Virus record (IMG/VR): IMGVR_UViG_3300017791_000207
Span: 32,001-96,000 of that record
Strand: one strand, 5' to 3'
Source of the DNA: a virus
Lineage: Duplodnaviria; Caudoviricetes
Length of the DNA: 64,000 nucleotides
The notes beneath the pieces were generated by a model that was not told the origin of the DNA, ran no database searches, and was given only the letters and a program-made list of their open reading frames with translations. Below are positions 9,892 to 45,749 of this stretch, in pieces. Within the stretch, counting starts at the first letter, position 1. Each line of letters starts with the position of its first letter. Position numbers and translations under genes: made by a program.

Positions 9892-10167
9892 TTATATTCT
9901 GTGTTTGTTGCCATCTTTTTGTTTATTTATAAATATATTTAGTTTTTCTACAACTTCGTGATATGCAGAATGTTCTTTAGGTTTGTGACCATAAGTTACT
10001 ATTTTGTATTTCTTACGTAATGGAGAGTGTAAAATTTCATAGGAACATGTTTTCTGATAATTATAAGCATCTCCCATTTCATCCCACCCTTGAATATCCC
10101 ATTCAGCTTTGTCAAACCATACAGGATACCAATCATTAGGTTTAAGTAAATTGCACATATTAATCAA
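9892..10167 (-). CDS. Hypothetical protein
   Basis: 91-aa ORF overlapping the upstream gene end. Confidence 0.55.
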   Translation of the reverse strand: MINMCNLLKPNDWYPVWFDKAEWDIQGWDEMGDAYNYQKTCSYEILHSPLRKKYKIVTYGHKPKEHSAYHEVVEKLNIFINKQKDGNKHRI

Positions 10168-10594
10168 TCATAAAATAATCATTAACAATATCAGGATATT
10201 TCTCTATCACTAAATCAACTATTTCACTACTCTTAAAGCACACGCCCGAAGGATAACCCGCACCGACCTGACCGTAGCAGCCGATGACAACCCACCGAGA
10301 ACCAGACCAGTATTTTTTAAGGATATACTTATATTGAGAACCATTCTTAAAGTCAGCTACCCAATCACCATTGTAATATTTGGCAATATGAAATAGTTGC
10401 ATCTGAGCATTTAACTGTCTTTCCCACTTATCAGTTGTATTTGATGGATATGGAAGTTTAATACTTTCTATGTTTGGTGAATTGAATGTATCTTTACCAT
10501 AAGCCGTTTCAAACATTATTTGCATGGCTCTTGGACTTTCACCATAATATTTGATAGCATCTTCTTTACTGATTTCTAATTTTTTGTTTTCCAT
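10160..10594 (-). CDS. Paralog of the DGR target protein (second/remote target candidate)
   Basis: WVV..(11 aa)..PSGVCFKSS...YPDIVNDY matches the C-terminus of the 25752-26303 product. Confidence 0.8.
   Translation of the reverse strand: MENKKLEISKEDAIKYYGESPRAMQIMFETAYGKDTFNSPNIESIKLPYPSNTTDKWERQLNAQMQLFHIAKYYNGDWVADFKNGSQYKYILKKYWSGSRWVVIGCYGQVGAGYPSGVCFKSSEIVDLVIEKYPDIVNDYFMID
10236..10307 (-). repeat. VR-like region 2 (diverged copy of DGR TR/VR)
   Basis: GC-rich patch; shares cacacgcccgaagga and gacaaccca exactly with VR1; one codon shorter than TR and has several non-adenine mismatches. Confidence 0.65.
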
Positions 10595-21522: not shown

Positions 21523-24340
21523 TGTATAAATTTTTTACATAATAATTCCATCCACTCCATTCCATATAAACGCGCGGTTCTCTTGGTACGATAGGGTTGT
21601 AAGGAAGATTTTTGAAATCTCTAATATTTTTTACTTTATTCACTAATAGATATTTAATAAAATCTTCGTAATTTAATTTAACATATCTTATTTTACTTGG
21701 AAAGAAATCCTCTTTATTATATTCTTTATAAAATCTATTAGGGTAAAGAGGTAAAATATTTTTTGGAAATTCTATGTTTAATGAACCTTCTTTCCACTTT
21801 CTATATTGTCTAATACTTGATATAATTCCATTATGCTTCTTATTTACTTCAATTATAGTTTTCTTAGCATCTTCATAAGAAATATATTTTAATTCTTGTA
21901 ACTTTTTCCAATTCCATTTACCTTTATAAACCGAATAAGGGTTTTGTGGAATATAAGGAGGATAATTGTCCTTTCTTTTTTCATGAGTGTTACAATCTAA
22001 AATTTCATTTCTTACAAACCATTTAATAGCTTCTTCAAATGATAAAAATCCTTCTTTATAGTTTAAAAATTCGTGCCATCTAAATTTAACACCATACCTT
22101 TTTTCAGGATCTTTTGGAAGATTTGGGGGAAAATCATTTTTTAAAGTCCATTTTTTATATTGTCTAAATGTTTTAATGTTTGAATGATTCTCTAAAATAT
22201 ATTTTTTAGCTACTGGATAACTATAAATCTCAGGTTTGAAAATGTTTTTCCAACCAGGCCAATCTCTATAATATTCTCGTGGATATCGAGGACAACGATA
22301 ATTTTTTATTTTTAAATATTCTTTCTCTGTATAAATCTGTTCTCTTTTTAAGTATGTTTTTAGTTCTTCTAATGTATAAAACTTACTTCCTTTTATGAAA
22401 CTAAATTTAAACACTTCTTTAAAATCAAAAACTTTTAATTTATTACCAGAATATTCCAAAAACTCAATATTTCCCTTAAAAGTACTATTATTAGGCTTGG
22501 CCTTAAAAGAGGTTATTCTTCCATCTTGTGTTTCTAATGCATTCAGTACTTCGATTAACTTTTCATAATCTTCTGATTCTGAGGGAATTATTACATATCC
22601 TCGTTTTTTATTAGGATACTTACGAATGCATCTGCCCACTGATTGTACAATATCAATTTTACTTTTCTTGGGATAACCATATAAAACAGCATCCGTATTC
22701 CTTACATCCATTCCTTCCTGAAAGCAATTTACCGAGGATATAACTGCCTTTTCAGCGTTTACAAAATTACCATATTGATTTTCATATAAAAATTCTGTTT
22801 GTTTAGAATTAATAGTAGAAGTATTGTAATCTAAACCATGAATCTTTTGAAATTTGTCATAGACTTCTATAAATAACTCGGCTTCATGAATAGTGGGATG
22901 ATAAGTTATTATCTTTTTGATACCATATTTCTGTATTGATTTAATGAGTGCCAACGCAGAAACTAAAATTCGAGTCTTAATACCTAACTTAATATTTTTA
23001 TCAAGGAAAAATTCTTCATTTATTTCCAATATATTCCTTACTTCTTCAGATTTAAAACCTATACTAAGTATTTTATAATCTAAGACTATTTTGTTTTGAA
23101 TCATTTCGGGTAATGAAATATTGGATATAGTTTCTCCAAATTTTTCATTATTCATCCCTATACCCTCATTAAGAAAGATTTTTTCAGTAGCTGTTAAAAA
23201 TAGGGCTTTCTCATATTTAGTAGAAGTAACTGCCGAAAGATACTTCTTATTTTCAGGTCCTGCTATTCTATGAGCTTCATCAAAAATTGCTAATTGAAAA
23301 TCAGGAAATTTATTAATGATGGATTCAAAACTTTTTAGAGTTGTAAATACTACAATATTAGCAGTCTTACTTATTCCTTGTATAGCTTCCATTTGCTTTT
23401 CTACAGAAGATGCAAGTAATGCAATTTTATTACTTTTAAGAGGTTTTTGAAATAATGAACCAAAGGCATAAAACCTGTGGTTAGGTAAAGAGTTCTTGAA
23501 AGCTTTTATTTGTTGATATAATAACATTCGGGAAGGGATAACTACTATCAGCCTTTTAATATCTAATTTCTTGACTATTTCAATAGCTGTATAGGTTTTA
23601 CCTGATCCACATGGATGTATTACCTTACCTCTGTTATTATCCTTAAAAAATTCTACTGCTTTATTTATGGTGCATGTTTGATGTTCCCACTCTTTAAATT
23701 TAGTAGTTGTCTGTTGATCTTTTGTTGGAATGACTTCCAATTTCCTTACAAGAGGTTTTTCATTTATAAGAGTTGGAATAATAGAACTAAAAGCATTTTC
23801 GATGTTATTTTTACTTAATTTAGTATCATCTTGAATGGTTTTTAGACAAATTTTCCCCTTTTGTAGAAGTGTGTAAACACCAATTAAGTTTTGAAGTGCT
23901 TTTTTGTCTTTCCCTTGGAGGTTAGTACCTTTATCAAAGGAGTAAGATTCACCACAGTTATTACAGTCATATCTTTTACCGCGCTGTATTACATTGGTGC
24001 TACTACATTTAATACAAGTTTTGTTATCTCCCCATATAATTTTCTCAAAATAATCATATACAAAGCTTTCAGTAGATGAAATACTCTCAATATCTTTTCC
24101 TTCAAGAGGTCTTTCAAACTTATCATAGGAATTTCTATCTTGAATATCATAAACCTTAAAATAAGATTTATATTTCTTTTTGAGTACTTCTAATATTTCC
24201 TCTTCTGTAAATTCTTTATCTTGTTCAGCTAAAAATAAATACAAATCAGAAATAAGATCATCTTTTTCAAAGAAGTTACTCTCAAAAGCACCATTTCTGA
24301 ATTGTTTATCTATTATTTCGGATATTGTATTATATTCCAT
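21509..24340 (-). CDS. Chimeric SF2 helicase: N-terminal Zn-ribbon/HTH, ResIII-like helicase core, C-terminal integrase-repeat-like units
   Basis: CIKCS..YDCNNC Zn ribbon; PCGSGKT, FDEAH, TAT, EGMDV, QSVGRCIR; about five repeats like YTLEELK...PRYPREYY.DWPGW. Confidence 0.85.
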   Translation of the reverse strand: MEYNTISEIIDKQFRNGAFESNFFEKDDLISDLYLFLAEQDKEFTEEEILEVLKKKYKSYFKVYDIQDRNSYDKFERPLEGKDIESISSTESFVYDYFEKIIWGDNKTCIKCSSTNVIQRGKRYDCNNCGESYSFDKGTNLQGKDKKALQNLIGVYTLLQKGKICLKTIQDDTKLSKNNIENAFSSIIPTLINEKPLVRKLEVIPTKDQQTTTKFKEWEHQTCTINKAVEFFKDNNRGKVIHPCGSGKTYTAIEIVKKLDIKRLIVVIPSRMLLYQQIKAFKNSLPNHRFYAFGSLFQKPLKSNKIALLASSVEKQMEAIQGISKTANIVVFTTLKSFESIINKFPDFQLAIFDEAHRIAGPENKKYLSAVTSTKYEKALFLTATEKIFLNEGIGMNNEKFGETISNISLPEMIQNKIVLDYKILSIGFKSEEVRNILEINEEFFLDKNIKLGIKTRILVSALALIKSIQKYGIKKIITYHPTIHEAELFIEVYDKFQKIHGLDYNTSTINSKQTEFLYENQYGNFVNAEKAVISSVNCFQEGMDVRNTDAVLYGYPKKSKIDIVQSVGRCIRKYPNKKRGYVIIPSESEDYEKLIEVLNALETQDGRITSFKAKPNNSTFKGNIEFLEYSGNKLKVFDFKEVFKFSFIKGSKFYTLEELKTYLKREQIYTEKEYLKIKNYRCPRYPREYYRDWPGWKNIFKPEIYSYPVAKKYILENHSNIKTFRQYKKWTLKNDFPPNLPKDPEKRYGVKFRWHEFLNYKEGFLSFEEAIKWFVRNEILDCNTHEKRKDNYPPYIPQNPYSVYKGKWNWKKLQELKYISYEDAKKTIIEVNKKHNGIISSIRQYRKWKEGSLNIEFPKNILPLYPNRFYKEYNKEDFFPSKIRYVKLNYEDFIKYLLVNKVKNIRDFKNLPYNPIVPREPRVYMEWSGWNYYVKNLYNETN

Positions 24341-24519
24341 TATATTCTAAATATTGTTTTGATTAAATTTTTAGTTGCCAAATCAGAAATAGTTTTAACT
24401 ACGCCTGATTGTTGTCTTTCTAAATTTTGAGTATATCTTTTCTTATACTCTTCTCGAACTTGTTCAGATTTTTTTAATGACCATTTTCCATGAACAAGAT
24501 ATTTGTCTATTGTATTCAT
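24340..24519 (-). CDS. 59-aa ORF linking DGR RT and helicase (not in ORF track)
   Basis: MNTIDKYLVHGKWSLKKSEQVREEYKKRYTQNLERQQSGVVKTISDLATKNLIKTIFRI; ATGA overlap with RT stop, TAATG overlap with helicase start. Confidence 0.6.
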   Translation of the reverse strand: MNTIDKYLVHGKWSLKKSEQVREEYKKRYTQNLERQQSGVVKTISDLATKNLIKTIFRI

Positions 24520-25457
24520 TGTATTAAAAGTTTAGCTTCAAGATTCCTCGCGTTGGCATGACCAGTCCAACCAAGATAGGAAGCGATTGATGTTAATTTG
24601 TGCCTGTTTCTTCGGAAATTTTCTTTGATATATTTTCTTACTTTTACTTTATCCTGATCAATTACATAACCAAGGAAGTCCAAAGGTCTTTTATTGATAG
24701 GAAATACTTGTTTATTCGAGAGTTTCAATCTTAATTTTTTATCAAGGTAATCTTCAATCTCATTTTTCAAGTAATATAAATACTCTTTACTCTCATGAAA
24801 TATTACAATGTCATCGCAGTAGATAGCAAGATATTTTATTTTTATGACTTCTTTAAGGTAATGTGAGAATTCGTTAAGATAAACATTTCCAAACCACTGC
24901 GAGGTAAAATTACCAAGTACGCAGCCATGCTCGATAGAATCAATAATCAAATCTAACAACCACAATAAATCAGGATCTTTAAACTTACGTCTCAGAAAGC
25001 CTTTCAAAAGGTCGTGAGATAGTGATGGGTAAAATTTCTGAATATCCATCTTCAAAACATACTTAGTTCCTTTCCTATCTTTAAGATGTTTCTTAATGTC
25101 TTTCAAGCACTTATGGACTCCGCGCGATTTAAGGCAAGAATAGGTCTGAGAAATAAAACTATCTTTTAAAATATCTCCAATGACAAGTATTATCGCCCAT
25201 TGAACAACACGATCTTTAAATGGAAGCTTTGAAATAATTCTTTCTTTAGGCTCATAAATCTTGAATACGAAATACTCCGATAACTTATAGGTTCTTGTTA
25301 ATAATTCTTGCTGTAAGAGTCTCAAATTTTCACTTAAATTACTGTTCCATATCCTAACATCCTTCTTCTTTCTTTTGCCTTTCTGCGCCTTCTGAGAAGC
25401 CTTTATGAGGTTCTCCATACTCACTATCTTATAGAATAAATTTCCTTTTCTTTTCAT
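24516..25457 (-). CDS. DGR reverse transcriptase
   Basis: MKRKGNLF..I...NL..A, EPKERII..LPFKDRVVQ, KMDIQKFYPS, GNFTSQ, YCDD, DFLGY; 313 aa with no maturase or endonuclease domain. Confidence 0.95.
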   Translation of the reverse strand: MKRKGNLFYKIVSMENLIKASQKAQKGKRKKKDVRIWNSNLSENLRLLQQELLTRTYKLSEYFVFKIYEPKERIISKLPFKDRVVQWAIILVIGDILKDSFISQTYSCLKSRGVHKCLKDIKKHLKDRKGTKYVLKMDIQKFYPSLSHDLLKGFLRRKFKDPDLLWLLDLIIDSIEHGCVLGNFTSQWFGNVYLNEFSHYLKEVIKIKYLAIYCDDIVIFHESKEYLYYLKNEIEDYLDKKLRLKLSNKQVFPINKRPLDFLGYVIDQDKVKVRKYIKENFRRNRHKLTSIASYLGWTGHANARNLEAKLLIQ

Positions 25458-25740
25458 TCTTTTATTTTATCACTCAACATCCCTGAGTGCTTATTACTAA
25501 GTCTCTTTCTACAATGATACTAAAGCCCGTTCAACTCATCTGTTTTTTACCACGGCTAGAAATGAGAAATATATTCTAACTTTATAGGTAGGGTCTAATT
25601 GTCTTTCTTTTTTATAATAAACATACGTCTGAAGGAATCATCGTGTTGTTGTTCCAATTGTTGTTGTAGTTGACAACTCAGTCGTGATCAGACTTTGACT
25701 AAGGGGGTAGAATGTAGACACATTCAATTAGACCTTTTAC
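25458..25740 (-). ncRNA. DGR template RNA (TR plus flanks and spacer)
   Basis: Non-coding interval; 10-bp inverted repeat 25592-25601/25725-25734 encloses TR; hairpin 25471-25489 just before RT start. Confidence 0.7.
25619..25693 (-). repeat. DGR template repeat (TR)
   Basis: AAC-rich on the minus strand; 75-nt ungapped match to VR1, 17 mismatches, all at TR adenines. Confidence 0.95.
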
Positions 25741-25751
25741 TTGCTTTTATA

Positions 25752-26303
25752 CTACTCGTTTATCATTGAATAGTCATCATATATTTCAGGGAACATTTCA
25801 TATGCTTTTAAAGCTAATTTTGAAGATTTAAAACACACGCCCGAAGGAAGCAACGCGCCGTTGCTCCAATCGTAGCTGCAGTAGACAACCCAGCCGAGAT
25901 CAGACGAATAATACTTGTATGGAAAATATTTACCCATACTTGTATCTTTCCAAGTAAGCTCAGTTCCTCCATTCATTACTTCCGAAATAATCATCATCTT
26001 TTCAGATGCATTGATACTTTTTTGACGTGGGGTGAGTTTATTACCTTGGTAAGGAAGAACCAATTTATCTAGTCTTTCTTGAATGACAGACTTATCGATA
26101 TCTCCTGGTTCTTTAAGGTATTTCTTCAGAGTTTTAGTTTGTTCTTCGTTGGCAGCTTCAAACATTTCAGATACTTGTGCTTGTGTAAGTTCTGTATCTT
26201 CAAATAGAGAAGTCATTTTCTTGATTTTACTCTTCCAATCTTGACAAGCGATATCAAAAATGGCTTTCATACCTTCGTAAGGTACTTTTTGTGTGTTACT
26301 CAT
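25752..26303 (-). CDS. DGR target protein (about 183 aa, VR in C-terminal domain)
   Basis: Contains VR1; likely start MSNTQK at 26303 because the longer ORF overlaps the upstream gene. Confidence 0.88.
   Translation of the reverse strand: MSNTQKVPYEGMKAIFDIACQDWKSKIKKMTSLFEDTELTQAQVSEMFEAANEEQTKTLKKYLKEPGDIDKSVIQERLDKLVLPYQGNKLTPRQKSINASEKMMIISEVMNGGTELTWKDTSMGKYFPYKYYSSDLGWVVYCSYDWSNGALLPSGVCFKSSKLALKAYEMFPEIYDDYSMINE
25831..25905 (-). repeat. DGR variable repeat (VR1)
   Basis: Encodes SDLGWVVYCSYDWSNGALLPSGVCF near the target C-terminus. Confidence 0.95.
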
Positions 26304-26568: not shown

Positions 26569-27290
26569 TCAAAATTTATTTAGGTCATTAATTGGAAAGT
26601 TAGTAAGGTGATCTTCAGGTATCTCAATTCGGTTGATACCTTGTGGTTGAGCGGGAATATTGGTTTTGATTGGCTCACCATAGAATAAGAAGTTCATTAT
26701 TTTGCGTATCATCAGTTTTTAGATTGAGACGATTATTAGTATTAATATTAACCAAATAAATATGTTGAGTAGTTTCAAGTAGAGTGCAAAGTTAAGTTGA
26801 TTATGTGAATATTAGTTGTTAAAAATTCGATAATTAAAAATTATGGTATTATAAAAACAAATATATGATAAAATTGATTGGAATGTGGAAAATTTACCAT
26901 AACTTTGCGTATCTGAAGCACAGCATTCGGGCTAAAGTCATTCCATCGCTACTTTACAGAGAGCTTGCAGATGAAATCCTCCTCATCTTTGGAGAGGGTA
27001 CAGTTATACTTTTTTGGGAGAACCTTTATTAGTTTTTCTATACCATTGACTATTAGGAGTACGAAGTACAGAACACCCACAAGTCAAGAAGGAGTACGAA
27101 AGGAAACCTGTAAGTATAGAGTGCTAGACTAAAAGTGCGAAGCACAAAGGTTTAAACCATTAACTATACAACTAGAAACCAAAATAGTACTCAAATAGAG
27201 AATCAAGAGTGGAAATGTAAAATAGAGGAAACGATCAAGAATAAGTACGAAATATGAGGCGTTTTCTTGACATTTATCAAGATTATAATT

Positions 27291-27821
27291 ATGAATAAAT
27301 TGAAATATAAATCATACAGTAGCATTAAACCTTCTTTTGCAGAGGTTCAAATCATCCAACAATTAAAAGATAGAAATATCTTCTATGTTAGAGAAGTGTA
27401 TTTTTATGGTTGTACAAATCCTAAAACAGGTTGTGAGTTAAGGTTTGACTTTTATATTCCAAATAAAAATCTCATAATTGAGTATGATGGTAAGGATTTT
27501 CATGAAGATAATGATGTGCAATACAGAGATTCGGTTAAGAATAAGTTTGCTAAACTCAACAAGATAAAAGTTGTGAGAATCGAAGGTATTCAGAATATTA
27601 CTAAAGTATTAAACCAATATTTCAATTCTAAGAGCAAGCCTAAGTTCAAAAGTAAAAATACCAAAGCACAATCTTATGGTTTATCAAACAATCAAAAGAA
27701 ACGTCTAACTGAACTTTTACAGCTTCAAAAAGATAGTCCTTTAGAATTTTATGATATGCTGATGGATATTAGAAAAACAGAGAAAAGAGTGTATGCCGAA
27801 TTAAAGAGACAATTCCCTTAA
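27291..27821 (+). CDS. Vsr/DUF559-like PD-(D/E)XK endonuclease
   Basis: AE..I...L, LRFDFYIP..NLIIEYDG..FH, RD..KN.FA....KVVRI; on the opposite strand to its neighbours. Confidence 0.8.
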   Translation: MNKLKYKSYSSIKPSFAEVQIIQQLKDRNIFYVREVYFYGCTNPKTGCELRFDFYIPNKNLIIEYDGKDFHEDNDVQYRDSVKNKFAKLNKIKVVRIEGIQNITKVLNQYFNSKSKPKFKSKNTKAQSYGLSNNQKKRLTELLQLQKDSPLEFYDMLMDIRKTEKRVYAELKRQFP

Positions 27822-42348: not shown

Positions 42349-42639
42349 ATGGCTAAGAATTCCTTTATAGATCAGGATATTGAATGGTGTGAAAAAAGAC
42401 TCCAAGAGTGGCAAAAATTTGTTGAGGATAATCCTGTAAATGAATTAAAAACACAAATAGAAGTAGTAAATGGAAAAGAAATGGTTGTAGCAACTATACA
42501 AGCCCAAGGTAAGTTCATACAAGAAACTATGAAGAACATAATTGCTATGACTGAAGCCTTAGATAAACTTCGTGAAAAAGAAGCTGCTAAAATAGAAGCA
42601 AGAGGTGGAGGAGATATTCCTTTTAGAATGCGTAAATAA
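42349..42639 (+). CDS. Small protein coupled to terL (small terminase candidate)
   Basis: TAATG overlap with terL; helical, basic C-terminal tail; function inferred from position only. Confidence 0.4.
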   Translation: MAKNSFIDQDIEWCEKRLQEWQKFVEDNPVNELKTQIEVVNGKEMVVATIQAQGKFIQETMKNIIAMTEALDKLREKEAAKIEARGGGDIPFRMRK

Positions 42640-45600
42640 TGGAAATAAAGACTACAGAGTTTTTTAAAAATATAAAAAAACTTCCTCCTATAGGTTCAAA
42701 GGAATTTGAAGACCTTGTTAAATGGGAGGAGGAGAAGTGTTTAGGTGGTGTTACTGTTAATGGATATCCTATTTCAGGATTTCTATATTGGTATCTAAAT
42801 CACTGGAATATACGTATTGATTTACCTCCTGATGAGAATGGAAATATTCCAAGGATAAAATCCTTACCTCATCTAAGAGACAATGAAATAGTTGTATGCG
42901 AAGGTCTCGAAACTGGACGCAGAGAGCAAAAAGGTTACCTGCAAATAGGTGGACGCCAGCTGGGGAAGTCCGAAATTGAGGCTGCCTATTGTGGTATGTC
43001 TGCAACTCTATACGAAAATAGTCAGAATATTATCGTAGCAGGTAATGATGCCGATTTAGCCTTGATGAGGGATAAGGTAGATTTTGGACTAAAGAATCTT
43101 TGGGAAGGATTAAAAATTCCTCGTCTTGATAAGACATGGAAAGATAATATGGTTCGCCTTGGTTTTAAACATAAAGATGGTGAAGATGATATTTGGTCTT
43201 ATTTAGTTATTCGTAATGCTAAAGACGGTCATAACACCGAAACTGCCGCAGGTACAACTGCAAAGTCTTTTATTCTTGATGAAGCTTTAGAAGAAAATGA
43301 ATTACTTTACCAAACAACAGGTGAGATAAAAATAAAAGATGTTAAGATAGGAGATAAAATATTTGATGATAAAGGCAATCTTACAAAAGTAATAGATAAA
43401 GTTGATGTTGGAATTGTTGACTTATGGGAATTTACTTTTAAGGACGGTAGAAAAATAACTTCTTCAGGAGATCATATTTGGTCTTTATATAATAACCATC
43501 TTAATAGATATATTGAAATTACAACTAAAGACCTTGTAGATAAAGGTTTTTATTATGATAAATTTGATAGTCGTTATAATAAACATGCTCGCTGTTTTAC
43601 TTATTCTGTAAAGAATGCAAATGCAGTTGATTATCAACCAAAAGATTTAGAAGTAGATCCTTACTATCTTGGCTGTTGGTTGGGTGATGGAACATCTTCA
43701 AAACCAACAGAAGTTTGTTCAATAGATGATTACATAATAGAGTATTGCGAAAAAATAGGAAAACATTTTAATCTAAAACCAAGAATAACTACAGATAAAA
43801 GTAAGAATGAAAAATTCAGAAATATAAATTTAGCTAAACAAGGTGGGTATAAAAATATACTTACTACTCTGTTTGAGGAAATGAATTTGGTTAATAATAA
43901 ACATATTCCATATAAATATTTATATGGTTCCTATGCTGATAGATTAGCCTTATTACAAGGTTTGATGGACACCGATGGGAGTATGTCTGAAACAGGTATG
44001 ATAGAGTTTAGCTCATCTTTTCCTAAATTAGCTGATGACTTTGAAAAATTATGTAGAAGTTTAGGTATTAGTATTAGAAGGTCAATAAAGGAAACTTATT
44101 ATATTTATAAAGGAGAAAGAAAAAGAGGTAAGGATACACATAGATTTAAACTTTATACAGGTATAAGAGTTTTCAGATTACAAAGAAAAATAGAAAGATA
44201 TAATTTATCAAGAAGAAATAACAATAGTAAAAAACAAAAAGCTTATAAAGAACGATGTCCTTTAATTAATATTGAATATAAAGGTAAGGGTCAAGCTTAC
44301 TGTATAAAAGTAGATAACGAAAGTAAACTATTTCTTACAACAGGTTATACTATAACTCATAACTGTGGTAAATTTCCTTTTGCACAGGCATTTGAAGCTG
44401 CTAAACCTGCGTTTAATTCAGCTTATGGATGGAGGGCAGTGCCAATTTTAATGGGTACTGGGGGTGCCTTTGAAAAGGGAGCAGATGCTGAAAGATTCTT
44501 CTATAACCCAGAAGCTAATAATCTTGTTTCCTATCTTGATGAGAAGTCAGGCATTAGTACAGGATTATTCTTATCGGGATTATACAGACAAGACTGTAAA
44601 GATGTAACAAATCTTGCTGACTATCTTACAAGGGTAAAAGGCATGGTTTTAGAAGATACTTCAGAACTCGAAAAAATAGAAATAAGAGTTACCAATGAAG
44701 AAAAGGCTCTTGCCAAGATATTAGAAGAAAGAGAAGAAAAGAAAAAAGATCCTGATCAAACAGAATACCTCAAACAAATCATGTACTATCCTCTCACAGT
44801 TGAGGAATGTTTCATGACTGTGAATGGTAACTTATATAATGCAGAGGCTGCTCGTGCAAGAATCAAAAAGATTAACTCAGAAGGGATTACAGGACAATAT
44901 GTAGAGGTTTACCATGATGGTACTAAATTAACACATAAGCACTCTCATAAATTACCTGTTTCAACATACCCTGCCAAAAAGACTGAGAATAAAGATGCTC
45001 CTGTAATAATGTGGGAAGCTCCTATGGAAAATCCACCATTTGGTCTATATGTCTTTGGTGCAGATCCATATAGAACTGACCAATCAGAATGGTCTGAATC
45101 ATTAGGTTCTATCTACATTTATAAAAGAGTTCACTCAATTGCAGGAGAAGACTTTCAGGATATGTTTGTGGCTTCTTATTGTGCAAGACCTAAAACAGTA
45201 GAAGAATGGTGTCAGAACGCCATGAATTTAATTGAATACTATAACGCCTATGGTTTAGTTGAGAATGATGACATGGGATTTATCAATTGGATTATTCGTA
45301 ATGGAAAAGAACATCATCTCGCAGCTTCTTTTGATTTCTTGAAATCATATAAACTTGAATCAAAAACATCAAGAACATATGGTATTCATCGATCTAATCC
45401 TCGTATAGTAACCATTCTTAGAAATAATTTAAAGACATATTTAAATGAAAAGATTGGTGAATTTGTAGATGATAAAGGTGAAAAAACAGGAGATATACTT
45501 GGTGTGAATAGAATATTTGATACAATGCTCCTTGAAGAAGTATCTAAATTTAATGGTATATTAAATGCGGATAGAGAAGTTGCAGCAAGTTTAGCAGTCA

Positions 45601-45749
45601 CTATTGCAAATTATCTTGACCCTGTTATAGGAGTTGTAGGACAAACTAATCAAGATCCAAGATTCAAGGCCATATATTCAAGGAATAAACTTCCTAAACA
45701 AACATTTTCAAATCTAAGAACTCCAACGTTCTCCAAAAGAAAAAGATAA
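42639..45749 (+). CDS. terL: Terminase large subunit containing an intein
   Basis: GGRQLGKS Walker A, ILDE|CGK Walker B split by intein, GTGG coupling motif, FGADPY nuclease motif, NADR. Confidence 0.93.
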   Translation: MEIKTTEFFKNIKKLPPIGSKEFEDLVKWEEEKCLGGVTVNGYPISGFLYWYLNHWNIRIDLPPDENGNIPRIKSLPHLRDNEIVVCEGLETGRREQKGYLQIGGRQLGKSEIEAAYCGMSATLYENSQNIIVAGNDADLALMRDKVDFGLKNLWEGLKIPRLDKTWKDNMVRLGFKHKDGEDDIWSYLVIRNAKDGHNTETAAGTTAKSFILDEALEENELLYQTTGEIKIKDVKIGDKIFDDKGNLTKVIDKVDVGIVDLWEFTFKDGRKITSSGDHIWSLYNNHLNRYIEITTKDLVDKGFYYDKFDSRYNKHARCFTYSVKNANAVDYQPKDLEVDPYYLGCWLGDGTSSKPTEVCSIDDYIIEYCEKIGKHFNLKPRITTDKSKNEKFRNINLAKQGGYKNILTTLFEEMNLVNNKHIPYKYLYGSYADRLALLQGLMDTDGSMSETGMIEFSSSFPKLADDFEKLCRSLGISIRRSIKETYYIYKGERKRGKDTHRFKLYTGIRVFRLQRKIERYNLSRRNNNSKKQKAYKERCPLINIEYKGKGQAYCIKVDNESKLFLTTGYTITHNCGKFPFAQAFEAAKPAFNSAYGWRAVPILMGTGGAFEKGADAERFFYNPEANNLVSYLDEKSGISTGLFLSGLYRQDCKDVTNLADYLTRVKGMVLEDTSELEKIEIRVTNEEKALAKILEEREEKKKDPDQTEYLKQIMYYPLTVEECFMTVNGNLYNAEAARARIKKINSEGITGQYVEVYHDGTKLTHKHSHKLPVSTYPAKKTENKDAPVIMWEAPMENPPFGLYVFGADPYRTDQSEWSESLGSIYIYKRVHSIAGEDFQDMFVASYCARPKTVEEWCQNAMNLIEYYNAYGLVENDDMGFINWIIRNGKEHHLAASFDFLKSYKLESKTSRTYGIHRSNPRIVTILRNNLKTYLNEKIGEFVDDKGEKTGDILGVNRIFDTMLLEEVSKFNGILNADREVAASLAVTIANYLDPVIGVVGQTNQDPRFKAIYSRNKLPKQTFSNLRTPTFSKRKR
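43284..44363 (+). mobile_element. Class-3 intein with LAGLIDADG homing endonuclease (360 aa)
   Basis: Starts Ala (ALEENELL), block B DHIW, block F AYCIKV, ends ITHN followed by Cys; YYLGCWLGDG and LLQGLMDTDG motifs. Confidence 0.9.

Follow-up and report, generated by a model that had tools for sequence, protein, structure and literature searches.

A complete and probably functional DGR of an Avd-less lineage of Bacteroidota phages is encoded in the window, the whole 64,000-nucleotide stretch of phage DNA that was analysed. The explanation that best accounts jointly for the cassette and its target, and that is considered reasonably probable, is a functional DGR that operates without Avd and diversifies a non-virion, intracellular binder protein engaged in phage-host or phage-phage conflict. 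Both the layout of the cassette and the family of its target are found repeatedly in Bacteroidota phages, many of them, and seem to be listed already in published catalogues.

Organization of the cassette and its TR/VR pair

All parts of the DGR lie on the minus strand, in the order target gene, 58-nt gap, TR, 161-nt spacer, and RT gene. The target ORF (26303..25752) encodes a protein of 183 aa belonging to the phrog_11581 family, and the VR (25831..25905) corresponds to residues 135-157 of this protein, comprising the second strand of a hairpin and the loop that follows, with a tail of 26 residues after it. The noncoding TR (25619..25693) sits within the 293 nt that separate the stop codon of the target gene from the start of the RT gene, followed by the spacer (25458..25618), presumed to be the 3' part of the DGR RNA, and the gene for the reverse transcriptase (RT; 25457..24516; 313 aa). 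The first-pass annotation had described a complete DGR in the order target-TR-spacer-RT with no room for an accessory gene; this description stands, as a TR/VR pair, an intact DGR-type RT, and a VR in the 3' part of the target gene were all found, while no ORF of at least 40 aa fits between the target, TR, and RT on either strand.

The alignment of TR and VR is gapless over 75 nt. Of the 25 adenines in the TR, 17 are changed in the VR (12 A>G, 4 A>T, 1 A>C), while the other 50 positions are all identical, exactly the figures given in that annotation; the hypergeometric probability of all 17 mismatches falling on adenines is 3.6e-11. The homology ends sharply on both sides, and the GC content of the VR reaches 57%, compared with 36% over the whole target gene. 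In the target frame, the TR carries TGA where the VR has TGG (Trp138), and the retention of TGG in the VR despite this stop codon indicates that the full-length target protein is under selection. The 3'-terminal VR segment (CCTTCGGGCGTGTGTTT; 25831..25847) has three adenine differences from the TR, all of them A>G and two of them silent, and relatives have analogous fixed differences at the VR 3' terminus; this segment is a candidate IMH, its TR counterpart being the putative IMH*. When the sequence 3' of the VR was read directly, just a weak AT-rich palindrome was seen there, and no GC-rich hairpin.

A scan of the whole genome with the TR adenines masked identified no second VR, full-length or partial, leaving 25831-25905 as the sole one. 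The target has a paralogue (10160..10594, minus strand; 144 aa) with 36% identity over the C-terminal 106 residues, whose VR-like stretch (10235-10307), when aligned to the present TR, is mismatched at 9 non-adenine positions and has 6 gap columns. The mismatches together with the indels rule out the paralogue as a live second target, and the stretch appears to be a fossil or orphan VR.

The complete genome has 115,287 bp, and its TerL, portal, and MCP match PHROGs, the portal being 23-30% identical to those of crAss-like and Flavobacterium/Cellulophaga phages; judged by these sequences, the host phage appears to be crAss-like. DNA comparison of the cassette region with GenBank phages gave no match, and tblastn was likewise negative for the target protein and the family member P0031. 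No close relatives or further copies of the TR/VR were present in IMG/VR and the JGI metagenomes. Across the whole window, no Rfam family was matched, and promoter and terminator scans gave hits at chance level only.

Reverse transcriptase lineage, helper proteins, and spacer RNA

The RT matches RVT_1 (1.7e-15) and phrog_1423 (2.9e-107), and its intact ORF contains LGNFTSQ as motif 4, which is of the DGR type [LIV]GxxxSQ, and YCDD as the catalytic YxDD motif. In the RT tree, it falls, on a long branch (1.16), within a 22-row clade (support 99/94) in which every RT is paired with the small target family, whereas the targets of the sister RT clades are large CLec proteins. Among 69 target-family loci, 32 carry an RT that is 43-52% identical to that of the window, and of the viral loci sampled that encode a family member, about half have the same target(s)-TR-RT cassette. 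The element is no isolated case; it belongs to a dedicated and widespread DGR lineage, which has apparently been catalogued as non-structural/unknown.

Avd is found in approximately 74% of DGRs; it is required in BPP-1 but is not universal. To our knowledge, every experimentally studied DGR needs it. The absence of Avd, noted previously for the cassette, extends to the rest of the genome, as PF05635, run against all six frames of the complete genome, gave no candidate at E<=10. However, this absence is ordinary rather than unusual: in the survey by Wu et al., architecture A, with no accessory gene, makes up 29% of DGRs and one entire lineage is without Avd (PMC5758913), and Avd occurs in only 2 of the 18 zeta crAss-like DGRs (PMC12386605). 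Similarly, an ORF between VR and TR is missing in nearly all of the 70 RT relatives examined, and no Avd was recognized by Pfam among the RT-adjacent ORFs of 20 relatives.

The small ORFs flanking the cassette have no match in Pfam, NCBIfam, or PHROG. One of them, a basic ORF of 59 aa (24340..24519, minus strand; pI 10), overlaps the RT stop with its start and the helicase-primase start with its end; it was rejected as a short Avd or other accessory protein, as it belongs to no family and does not align to the conserved RT-adjacent ORF of the relatives. This conserved ORF of approximately 100 aa, phrog_19665, is carried by most relatives and is absent from the window genome (best E 0.26). The nearest relatives, L075, L002, L073, and L074, also lack phrog_19665, yet they have clean adenine-only TR/VR pairs. 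Since the genome has neither Avd nor phrog_19665, the RT may either need no helper or be impaired; presumably, it works without any helper protein.

Within 25487-25571, the spacer contains conserved blocks and a covarying helix of 7 bp that is 89.7% paired, with compensatory changes in 6 of the 7 pairs. Although RNAalifold gave little signal on the whole spacer, the helix emerged after trimming to the conserved core, and it outscores every shuffle in terms of paired cells, double-change cells, and covariation, and all slid controls as well. The spacer of the window retains 6 of the 7 helix pairs and carries a lineage-specific insert of approximately 35 nt with a hairpin, located immediately before the RT start.

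Among seven closely related phages with an identical TR, variation in the VRs affects 15 of 22 and 17 of 21 adenine sites but just 1 of approximately 106 other sites, demonstrating that sister elements are diversifying at present. Among orthologues of the target, identity is 23-54% at adenine-bearing codons and 65-78% outside the VR. The window copy of the DGR is presumably active as well. In the proposed mechanism, the TR and the structured 3' spacer would be transcribed together, and the RT would reverse-transcribe the resulting RNA into cDNA while misreading adenines. The cDNA would then replace the VR as far as the fixed 3' boundary formed by the candidate IMH, with the outcome that about 13 codons, covering one beta-strand and a loop of the 183-aa protein, could be rewritten. 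The target, soluble and encoded in the same orientation as the replication genes, would most likely act inside the cell and not in the virion, as a hypervariable binder in conflicts between phage and host or between phages.

Target protein family and its genomic setting

The target consists of an N-terminal helical domain (approximately residues 1-80) and a C-terminal variable domain, the latter composed of a helix (92-110), a beta-hairpin (125-145), a loop, and two helices (161-178). Its pI is 5.2, and neither a hydrophobic stretch (maximum KD19 0.72) nor a signal peptide or transmembrane segment is present. The match to phrog_11581 has a value of 3.1e-5 for the target itself and 4e-25 for its relatives, and a search with the family profile yielded 1192 cluster representatives, with family members often arranged as 2-3 tandem paralogues. 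Orthologues that are 61-73% identical to the target are located on contigs of 115-117 kb. No name for the family was found in Pfam, NCBIfam, or the ESM Atlas.

The C-type lectin fold expected for the target in the first-pass annotation was not borne out. The AF2 model of the target has a pLDDT of 91.4, and Foldseek against the PDB retrieved nothing for it at E<=1e-3; in a wide search with VIA, the best Z was 4.6, and no CLec chain was among the best 50 matches listed (lowest Z 3.1). The family profile reached a best E of 0.35 against the PDB, with unrelated proteins, and when the family was compared by hhalign with the CLec VR domains targeted by sister DGRs, the probability was 3.9%. As a positive control, sequence profiles of the large targets of sister DGRs, when compared with solved structures, did match TaqVP (3e-4) and Mtd (9e-4) by the same method, and a CLec fold is therefore left unsupported for the present target. 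An Ig fold or any other solved fold, considered as candidates in the same structure and profile searches, also had no match. A tentative proposal, regarded as possible though doubtful as a whole, is that phrog_11581 represents a third DGR scaffold unlike the CLec and Ig folds, a compact, soluble domain in which a beta-strand and loop would be hypermutated intracellularly, providing Bacteroidota phages with an antibody-like repertoire of binders against host defence or competitor proteins, served by an RT lineage free of Avd and, here, of any helper.

The target gene is located in the replication arm, 16 kb from the terminase gene and on the strand opposite to the structural module. At 14 viral loci, the neighbours of family members include helicases, DNA polymerases, primase, recombinase, endonuclease VII, and SbcC-like and MazG-like proteins, and no structural PHROG is present among the 25 families matched by the largest numbers of neighbours at these loci. 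A family member at a prophage-like locus of Dyadobacter has the same replication and recombination context. The first-pass observation of a small target, free of a signal peptide and placed among early or replication genes, thus holds for the window and describes a context common to the whole target family. The position in the replication arm argues mildly against a role in the virion; the target protein is presumably intracellular and is best described as a putative hypervariable binder. The first-pass suggestion that such a binder may be directed against host defence proteins is a reasonable hypothesis.

A probable counterpart of this family exists in the catalogue of Roux et al. 2021 (PMC8144416), in which PC_00007 ('Phage_other'; DGR clade 1, FCB, viral) is, like the window family, viral and linked to Bacteroidota, with tandem targets next to the RT. 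Judged by these descriptors, the two families are probably the same. PC_00007 was judged non-structural/unknown, with 1.6% of its members predicted to be structural and no fold or function assigned (PMC8144416).

Alternative explanations and known systems

The target may instead be a virion-associated or extracellular host-recognition protein, such as a small adhesin on the tail or capsid, with the DGR serving to switch host range, as it does in BPP-1 and in other crAss-like phages. All characterized phage DGR targets are receptor-binding proteins, large CLec proteins are targeted in the sister RT clades, the published crAss-like targets are tail fibres or receptor-binding proteins (RBPs) (PMC11054128, PMC12386605), and Roux et al. 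warn that unannotated targets could be uncharacterized structural proteins (PMC8144416). Nevertheless, this explanation is regarded as unlikely, considering the strand and replication-arm position of the gene, the replication and recombination neighbours that accompany the family across diverse phages, and the undetectable CLec similarity in both structure and profile searches. The small target also lacks, besides a signal peptide, any fibre-like or docking domain; tandem paralogues are common in its family, and PC_00007, the probable catalogue equivalent, has very few members predicted to be structural.

More improbable still is a recently silenced relic, that is, a cassette that wrote its VR in the past and whose RT no longer homes without Avd or phrog_19665. 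Such a history would fit the absence of both helper candidates from the genome, the long RT branch, the spacer insert with its broken pair in the conserved helix, the already fossil second family member, and the loss of the TR-RT module by some related phages that retain their targets. In contrast, the lack of any non-adenine difference, the intact RT ORF with its catalytic motifs, the 25 adenines retained in the TR, and the clean pairs of the nearest relatives that lack phrog_19665 argue for a functional cassette. A chance or recombinational duplication, with no reverse transcription involved, has nothing in its favour except the general existence of direct repeats, and it is effectively refuted by the adenine-only pattern, the DGR-type RT adjoining the repeats, and the dozens of relatives with identical architecture. 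The preferred reading remains a working Avd-less DGR with an intracellular target.

In Wu et al. 2018 (PMC5758913), Architecture A1 of the Avd-less Lineage 3 shares with the window DGR the order target-TR-RT and the lack of an accessory gene, as well as Bacteroidota hosts, association with phages, and a VR class that follows the RT phylogeny; the VRs of that lineage are classed there as CLec3 via Phyre2, whereas the window target gives no CLec signal. The DGRs of crAss-like phages (alpha, delta, epsilon, and zeta) are similar in being mostly Avd-less and in the order target-TR-RT, and the window phage appears to be of the same crAss-like type, but the targets published for them, tail-fibre or RBP proteins, have a C-terminal CLec domain and are encoded in the structural block (PMC7290462, PMC11054128, PMC12386605), in contrast to the small target in the replication block of the window. 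The second target of the Quimbyvirus DGR, as in the window, is a putative non-structural protein encoded away from the structural module and interpreted in terms of phage-host conflict (Benler et al. 2021, PMC8008677). That protein has a C-type lectin domain and is a remote second target beside a structural one, lying in a methyltransferase/nuclease island (PMC8008677), while the window protein is the sole target, adjoins the RT, has no recognizable fold, and is encoded next to a primase-helicase.

With BPP-1 (mtd-avd-TR-brt), the window element has in common the adenine-specific transfer from TR to VR, a TR upstream of the RT, a structured spacer RNA, and a VR close to the 3' terminus of the target gene; the window also offers a candidate for the IMH/IMH* difference at the 3' boundary. 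It differs in the absence of Avd, in a target that is not a tail-fibre CLec protein, in the approximately 26 residues after the VR, in the lack of a visible GC-rich hairpin after the VR, and in the in-frame stop within the TR.

DGRs are usually explained as changing the outside adhesion of a phage or cell by means of a C-type lectin scaffold and an Avd helper. The present lineage departs from this picture, with a small soluble target encoded with replication genes, a confidently modelled fold that has no match among solved structures, and no Avd. The window copy is little more than another example, and the interest attaches to the whole family. If the target acts intracellularly, it would constitute a programmable hypervariable binder for phage-host conflict, as well as a compact natural scaffold (approximately 100 residues) that, together with a minimal two-part mutagenesis module of TR and RT, may be of use in protein engineering.

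The cassette and its phage

[quoted passage not shown] The variable repeat (VR, 25831-25905), corresponding to residues 135-157 of the target and leaving 26 residues after it, aligns with the TR over 75 nt without gaps, and the similarity stops sharply at either end. Seventeen of the 25 TR adenines are changed in the VR (12 to G, 4 to T, 1 to C), as against none of the 50 other positions, and the probability that all 17 mismatches fall on adenines by chance is 3.6e-11. The RT matches RVT_1 and phrog_1423 (2.9e-107) and carries the DGR hallmark LGNFTSQ together with YCDD. The first-pass annotation of a complete target-TR-spacer-RT element was exact, and the cassette is almost certainly a genuine DGR. 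No further VR, whole or partial, was detected on either strand of the complete genome with TR adenines masked.

A paralogue of the target (10160-10594, minus strand; 36% identical over 106 residues) was rejected as a current DGR target, its GC-rich VR-like stretch (10235-10307) differing from the TR by 9 non-adenine mismatches and 6 gap columns. This stretch retains 13 of the 14 bases of the window VR's 3' end and looks like a fossil or orphaned VR.

The phage genome of which the window is part is complete at 115,287 bp, carries terminal repeats and has a G+C content of about 31%. Its leftward replication arm encodes a DNA polymerase and a 943-aa helicase-primase-like protein besides many small ORFs, and its rightward structural arm begins at the terminase, at 42.6 kb. 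Because its portal is 23-30% identical to those of crAss-like, Flavobacterium and Cellulophaga phages, the phage appears by sequence to be a distant crAss-like phage, very probably with a Bacteroidota host. The ORF of the terminase large subunit (42639-45749, plus strand) is unusually long at 1036 aa and has further matches, to primase and DnaC-like ATPase PHROGs, in its N-terminal part, suggesting a fusion or an inserted element. Within the leftward early arm, an HNH/homing-endonuclease-like gene (27267-27821; phrog_559, 3e-16) lies on the opposite, plus strand and is preceded by about 550 nt with few ORFs (26713-27266).

The target family, its fold and its likely role

Word-based searching returned only nine close homologues of the target, mostly on contigs of 98-117 kb, in whose alignment the hypervariable part is the VR segment, with identities of 23-54% at adenine-bearing codons versus 65-78% outside the VR. 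The family is large, since a profile search recovered 1192 cluster representatives at E<=1e-3; it corresponds to phrog_11581, has no Pfam name and is labelled in the ESM Atlas only as 'hypothetical protein, Viruses'. Throughout the family, the residues produced by AAY-codon mutagenesis (Y, G, S, C, D, A and V) abound in the VR columns. Among 69 family loci (67 viral loci found by the family motif, plus the relatives L001 and L002), 32 carry an RT 43-52% identical to that of the window and 35 were flagged for adenine-only repeat pairs; in nearly all flagged loci these are TR/VR pairs of small targets, one to three in tandem, that lie immediately upstream of TR and RT. The family and its RT also occur in Bacteroidota genomes, namely a Dyadobacter isolate and Algoriella and Prolixibacteraceae metagenome-assembled genomes. 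In an RT tree of non-identical rows with RT matches of at least 250 residues, the 22 non-identical small-target RTs group in a single clade (UFBoot 99, SH-aLRT 94) that is nested among RTs paired with large targets, a label based on ORF length and the way the loci were found; the window's RT is sister to that of L075, on a long branch. Two relatives show the order target1-TR1-RT-target2-TR2, the RT being followed by another small target and another TR (L073:5610-6070 and L074:5520-6099).

The AlphaFold model of the target, built on a 126-sequence alignment (pLDDT 91.4, pTM 0.79), has two domains. The N-terminal one is helical; in the C-terminal one, a long helix is followed by a beta-hairpin, a loop and two short helices, and the VR spans the second hairpin strand and the loop. 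A C-type lectin fold had been expected. Foldseek against the PDB gave nothing at E<=1e-3 with either target model; in an exhaustive VIA search covering 48,161 chains, the highest Z was 4.6, over 53 residues, and no C-type lectin chain was among the matches listed; and the family profile found no match among PDB sequences (best E 0.35, to unrelated proteins). Profile-profile comparison of the small targets with the large ones, which are C-type lectin (CLec) proteins of sister DGRs, yielded 3.9% probability, and the small-target family HMM had no match in the large targets. The expected fold is therefore unsupported, these searches being empty while the positive control matched: the C-terminal domains of the sister large targets show the usual 'GG.W...G.R' pattern and match TaqVP (5VF4, 3e-4) and Mtd (1YU2, 9e-4). 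The target could still be a very divergent lectin variant. In BFVD it matches only uncharacterised proteins, from crAss-like or other uncultured phages (best E 6e-6).

Downstream of the target come the TR, the RT, a 59-aa ORF and the helicase-primase gene, and stop and start codons overlap at both the RT/59-aa ORF and the 59-aa ORF/helicase-primase junctions. In L001, from another phage, a 40% identical homologue immediately precedes the gene for a 785-aa protein; the contig, which is partial (an estimated 39% complete), has no RT. Across 14 diverse viral loci, the leading PHROG families, ranked by the number of neighbouring genes that match them, are endonuclease VII, DNA helicases, recombinase, SbcC-like and MazG-like proteins, nucleoside deoxyribosyltransferase, DNA polymerases and primase, with no structural family in the top 25; in Dyadobacter, genes for a Lin1244-type replication protein and an AAA ATPase come after the cassette. 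The placement of the small target among early genes agrees with its replication-arm location and replication-type neighbours. The protein is probably non-structural, and a non-virion, intracellular location is favoured because of these neighbours and the absence of any hydrophobic segment in the target. That it serves as a binder in phage-host conflict is a tentative suggestion, somewhat less likely than its being something else.

Accessory genes, spacer RNA and evidence of activity

No avd had been visible near the cassette, and this was borne out by a six-frame search of the whole 115,287-bp genome, which gave no candidate for Avd (PF05635) even at E<=10; the small ORFs flanking the cassette had no family match. 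This absence is real but ordinary. An accessory gene is lacking in 29% of 372 DGRs ('Architecture A'), one entire lineage has no avd, and no remote avd was found in such genomes (Wu et al., PMC5758913); among zeta crAss-like DGRs, Avd was present in only 2 of 18 (PMC12386605). VR, TR and RT are packed together in almost all of the 71 loci retrieved with the window's RT, no gene separating VR from TR, and Pfam detected no Avd among 20 scanned RT-flanking ORFs of relatives.

A conserved small ORF (phrog_19665, about 100 aa), with FSxF, FTGS and FPFxTTI motifs, occurs in at least 57 loci of the window's RT clade, where it immediately follows the RT or, in occasional loci, separates target from TR (L109:5592-5945, L017:6001-6300, L076:6082-6396, L009:1574-1879, L079:4462-4806 and about 50 more loci). 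It accompanies both large CLec-target and small-target loci, is not Avd as judged by Pfam, where it has no match, and matches no PDB sequence. It is a candidate non-Avd helper. The gene is absent from the window phage's genome (best E 0.26) and likewise missing from the nearest relatives, L075, L002, L073 and L074. In the window, a basic 59-aa ORF (pI 10), for which no relatives were found, overlaps the RT stop. Two close phages (L079 and L090, IMG/VR contigs of about 53-73 kb) differ by the presence or absence of a 1.65-kb module of a phrog_19665-like ORF, TR and RT, and two tandem target genes are retained in both.

The TR-RT spacer contains sequence blocks common to the window and 17 relatives, as well as a 7-bp helix whose pairing stands at 89.7% and in which 6 of 7 pairs show compensatory changes. 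No shuffle reached the helix's values for paired cells, double-change cells or covariation, and all slid controls scored lower. Six of the seven pairs form in the window copy, which has an additional 35-nt insert before the RT start. In seven closely related phages, a sister element has identical TRs and two VRs, whose variable positions comprise 15 of 22 and 17 of 21 adenine sites and 1 of about 106 others; since such variation occurs under identical TRs, this DGR lineage is evidently active in nature, as seen in the sister element.

The 3'-most TR adenines have the same replacement base in every VR of the clade. Between TR 25619-25635 and VR 25831-25847 of the window, the change is from CCTTCAGACGTATG to CCTTCGGGCGTGTG (three A>G differences, two of them silent), and in relatives L076-L134 it is from GTCAGCTCTCACCTATGC to GTCGGCTCTCGCCTTTGC in about 30 VRs. 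These fixed differences are a candidate IMH/IMH* boundary, the 3' boundary pair of VR and TR; alternatively, they may reflect protein-level selection for Gly/Arg there. Farther into the repeat, TR 25678-25680 is TGA in the target frame and VR 25890-25892 is TGG (Trp138), the TGA recurring at this position in both TRs of L073 and in L074 and L075. A faithful TR copy would truncate the target, and only A>G would restore Trp; the TGG retained opposite the TGA shows that a full-length product is under selection.

Standing among known DGR targets

Among non-structural phage DGR targets, a single precedent has been described: the second target of Quimbyvirus, which is a C-type lectin protein encoded in a defence-related island (PMC8008677). 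In addition, two viral target clusters were classed as 'non-structural/unknown' by Roux et al. (PMC8144416 supplement), one of which, PC_00007 ('Phage_other'), is viral, FCB-linked and of DGR clade 1, includes tandem targets whose gene numbers directly neighbour that of the RT and has only 1.6% of its members predicted to be structural. Matched by descriptors only, PC_00007 is very probably the small-target family of the window DGR, which belongs to a known, catalogued and functionally uncharacterised kind. Peculiar to the window copy are its single target in a large crAss-like genome, the lack of a phrog_19665 partner and the fossil paralogue; the points of interest, namely an unmatched fold, a probable intracellular role and putative homing without Avd, belong to the family.
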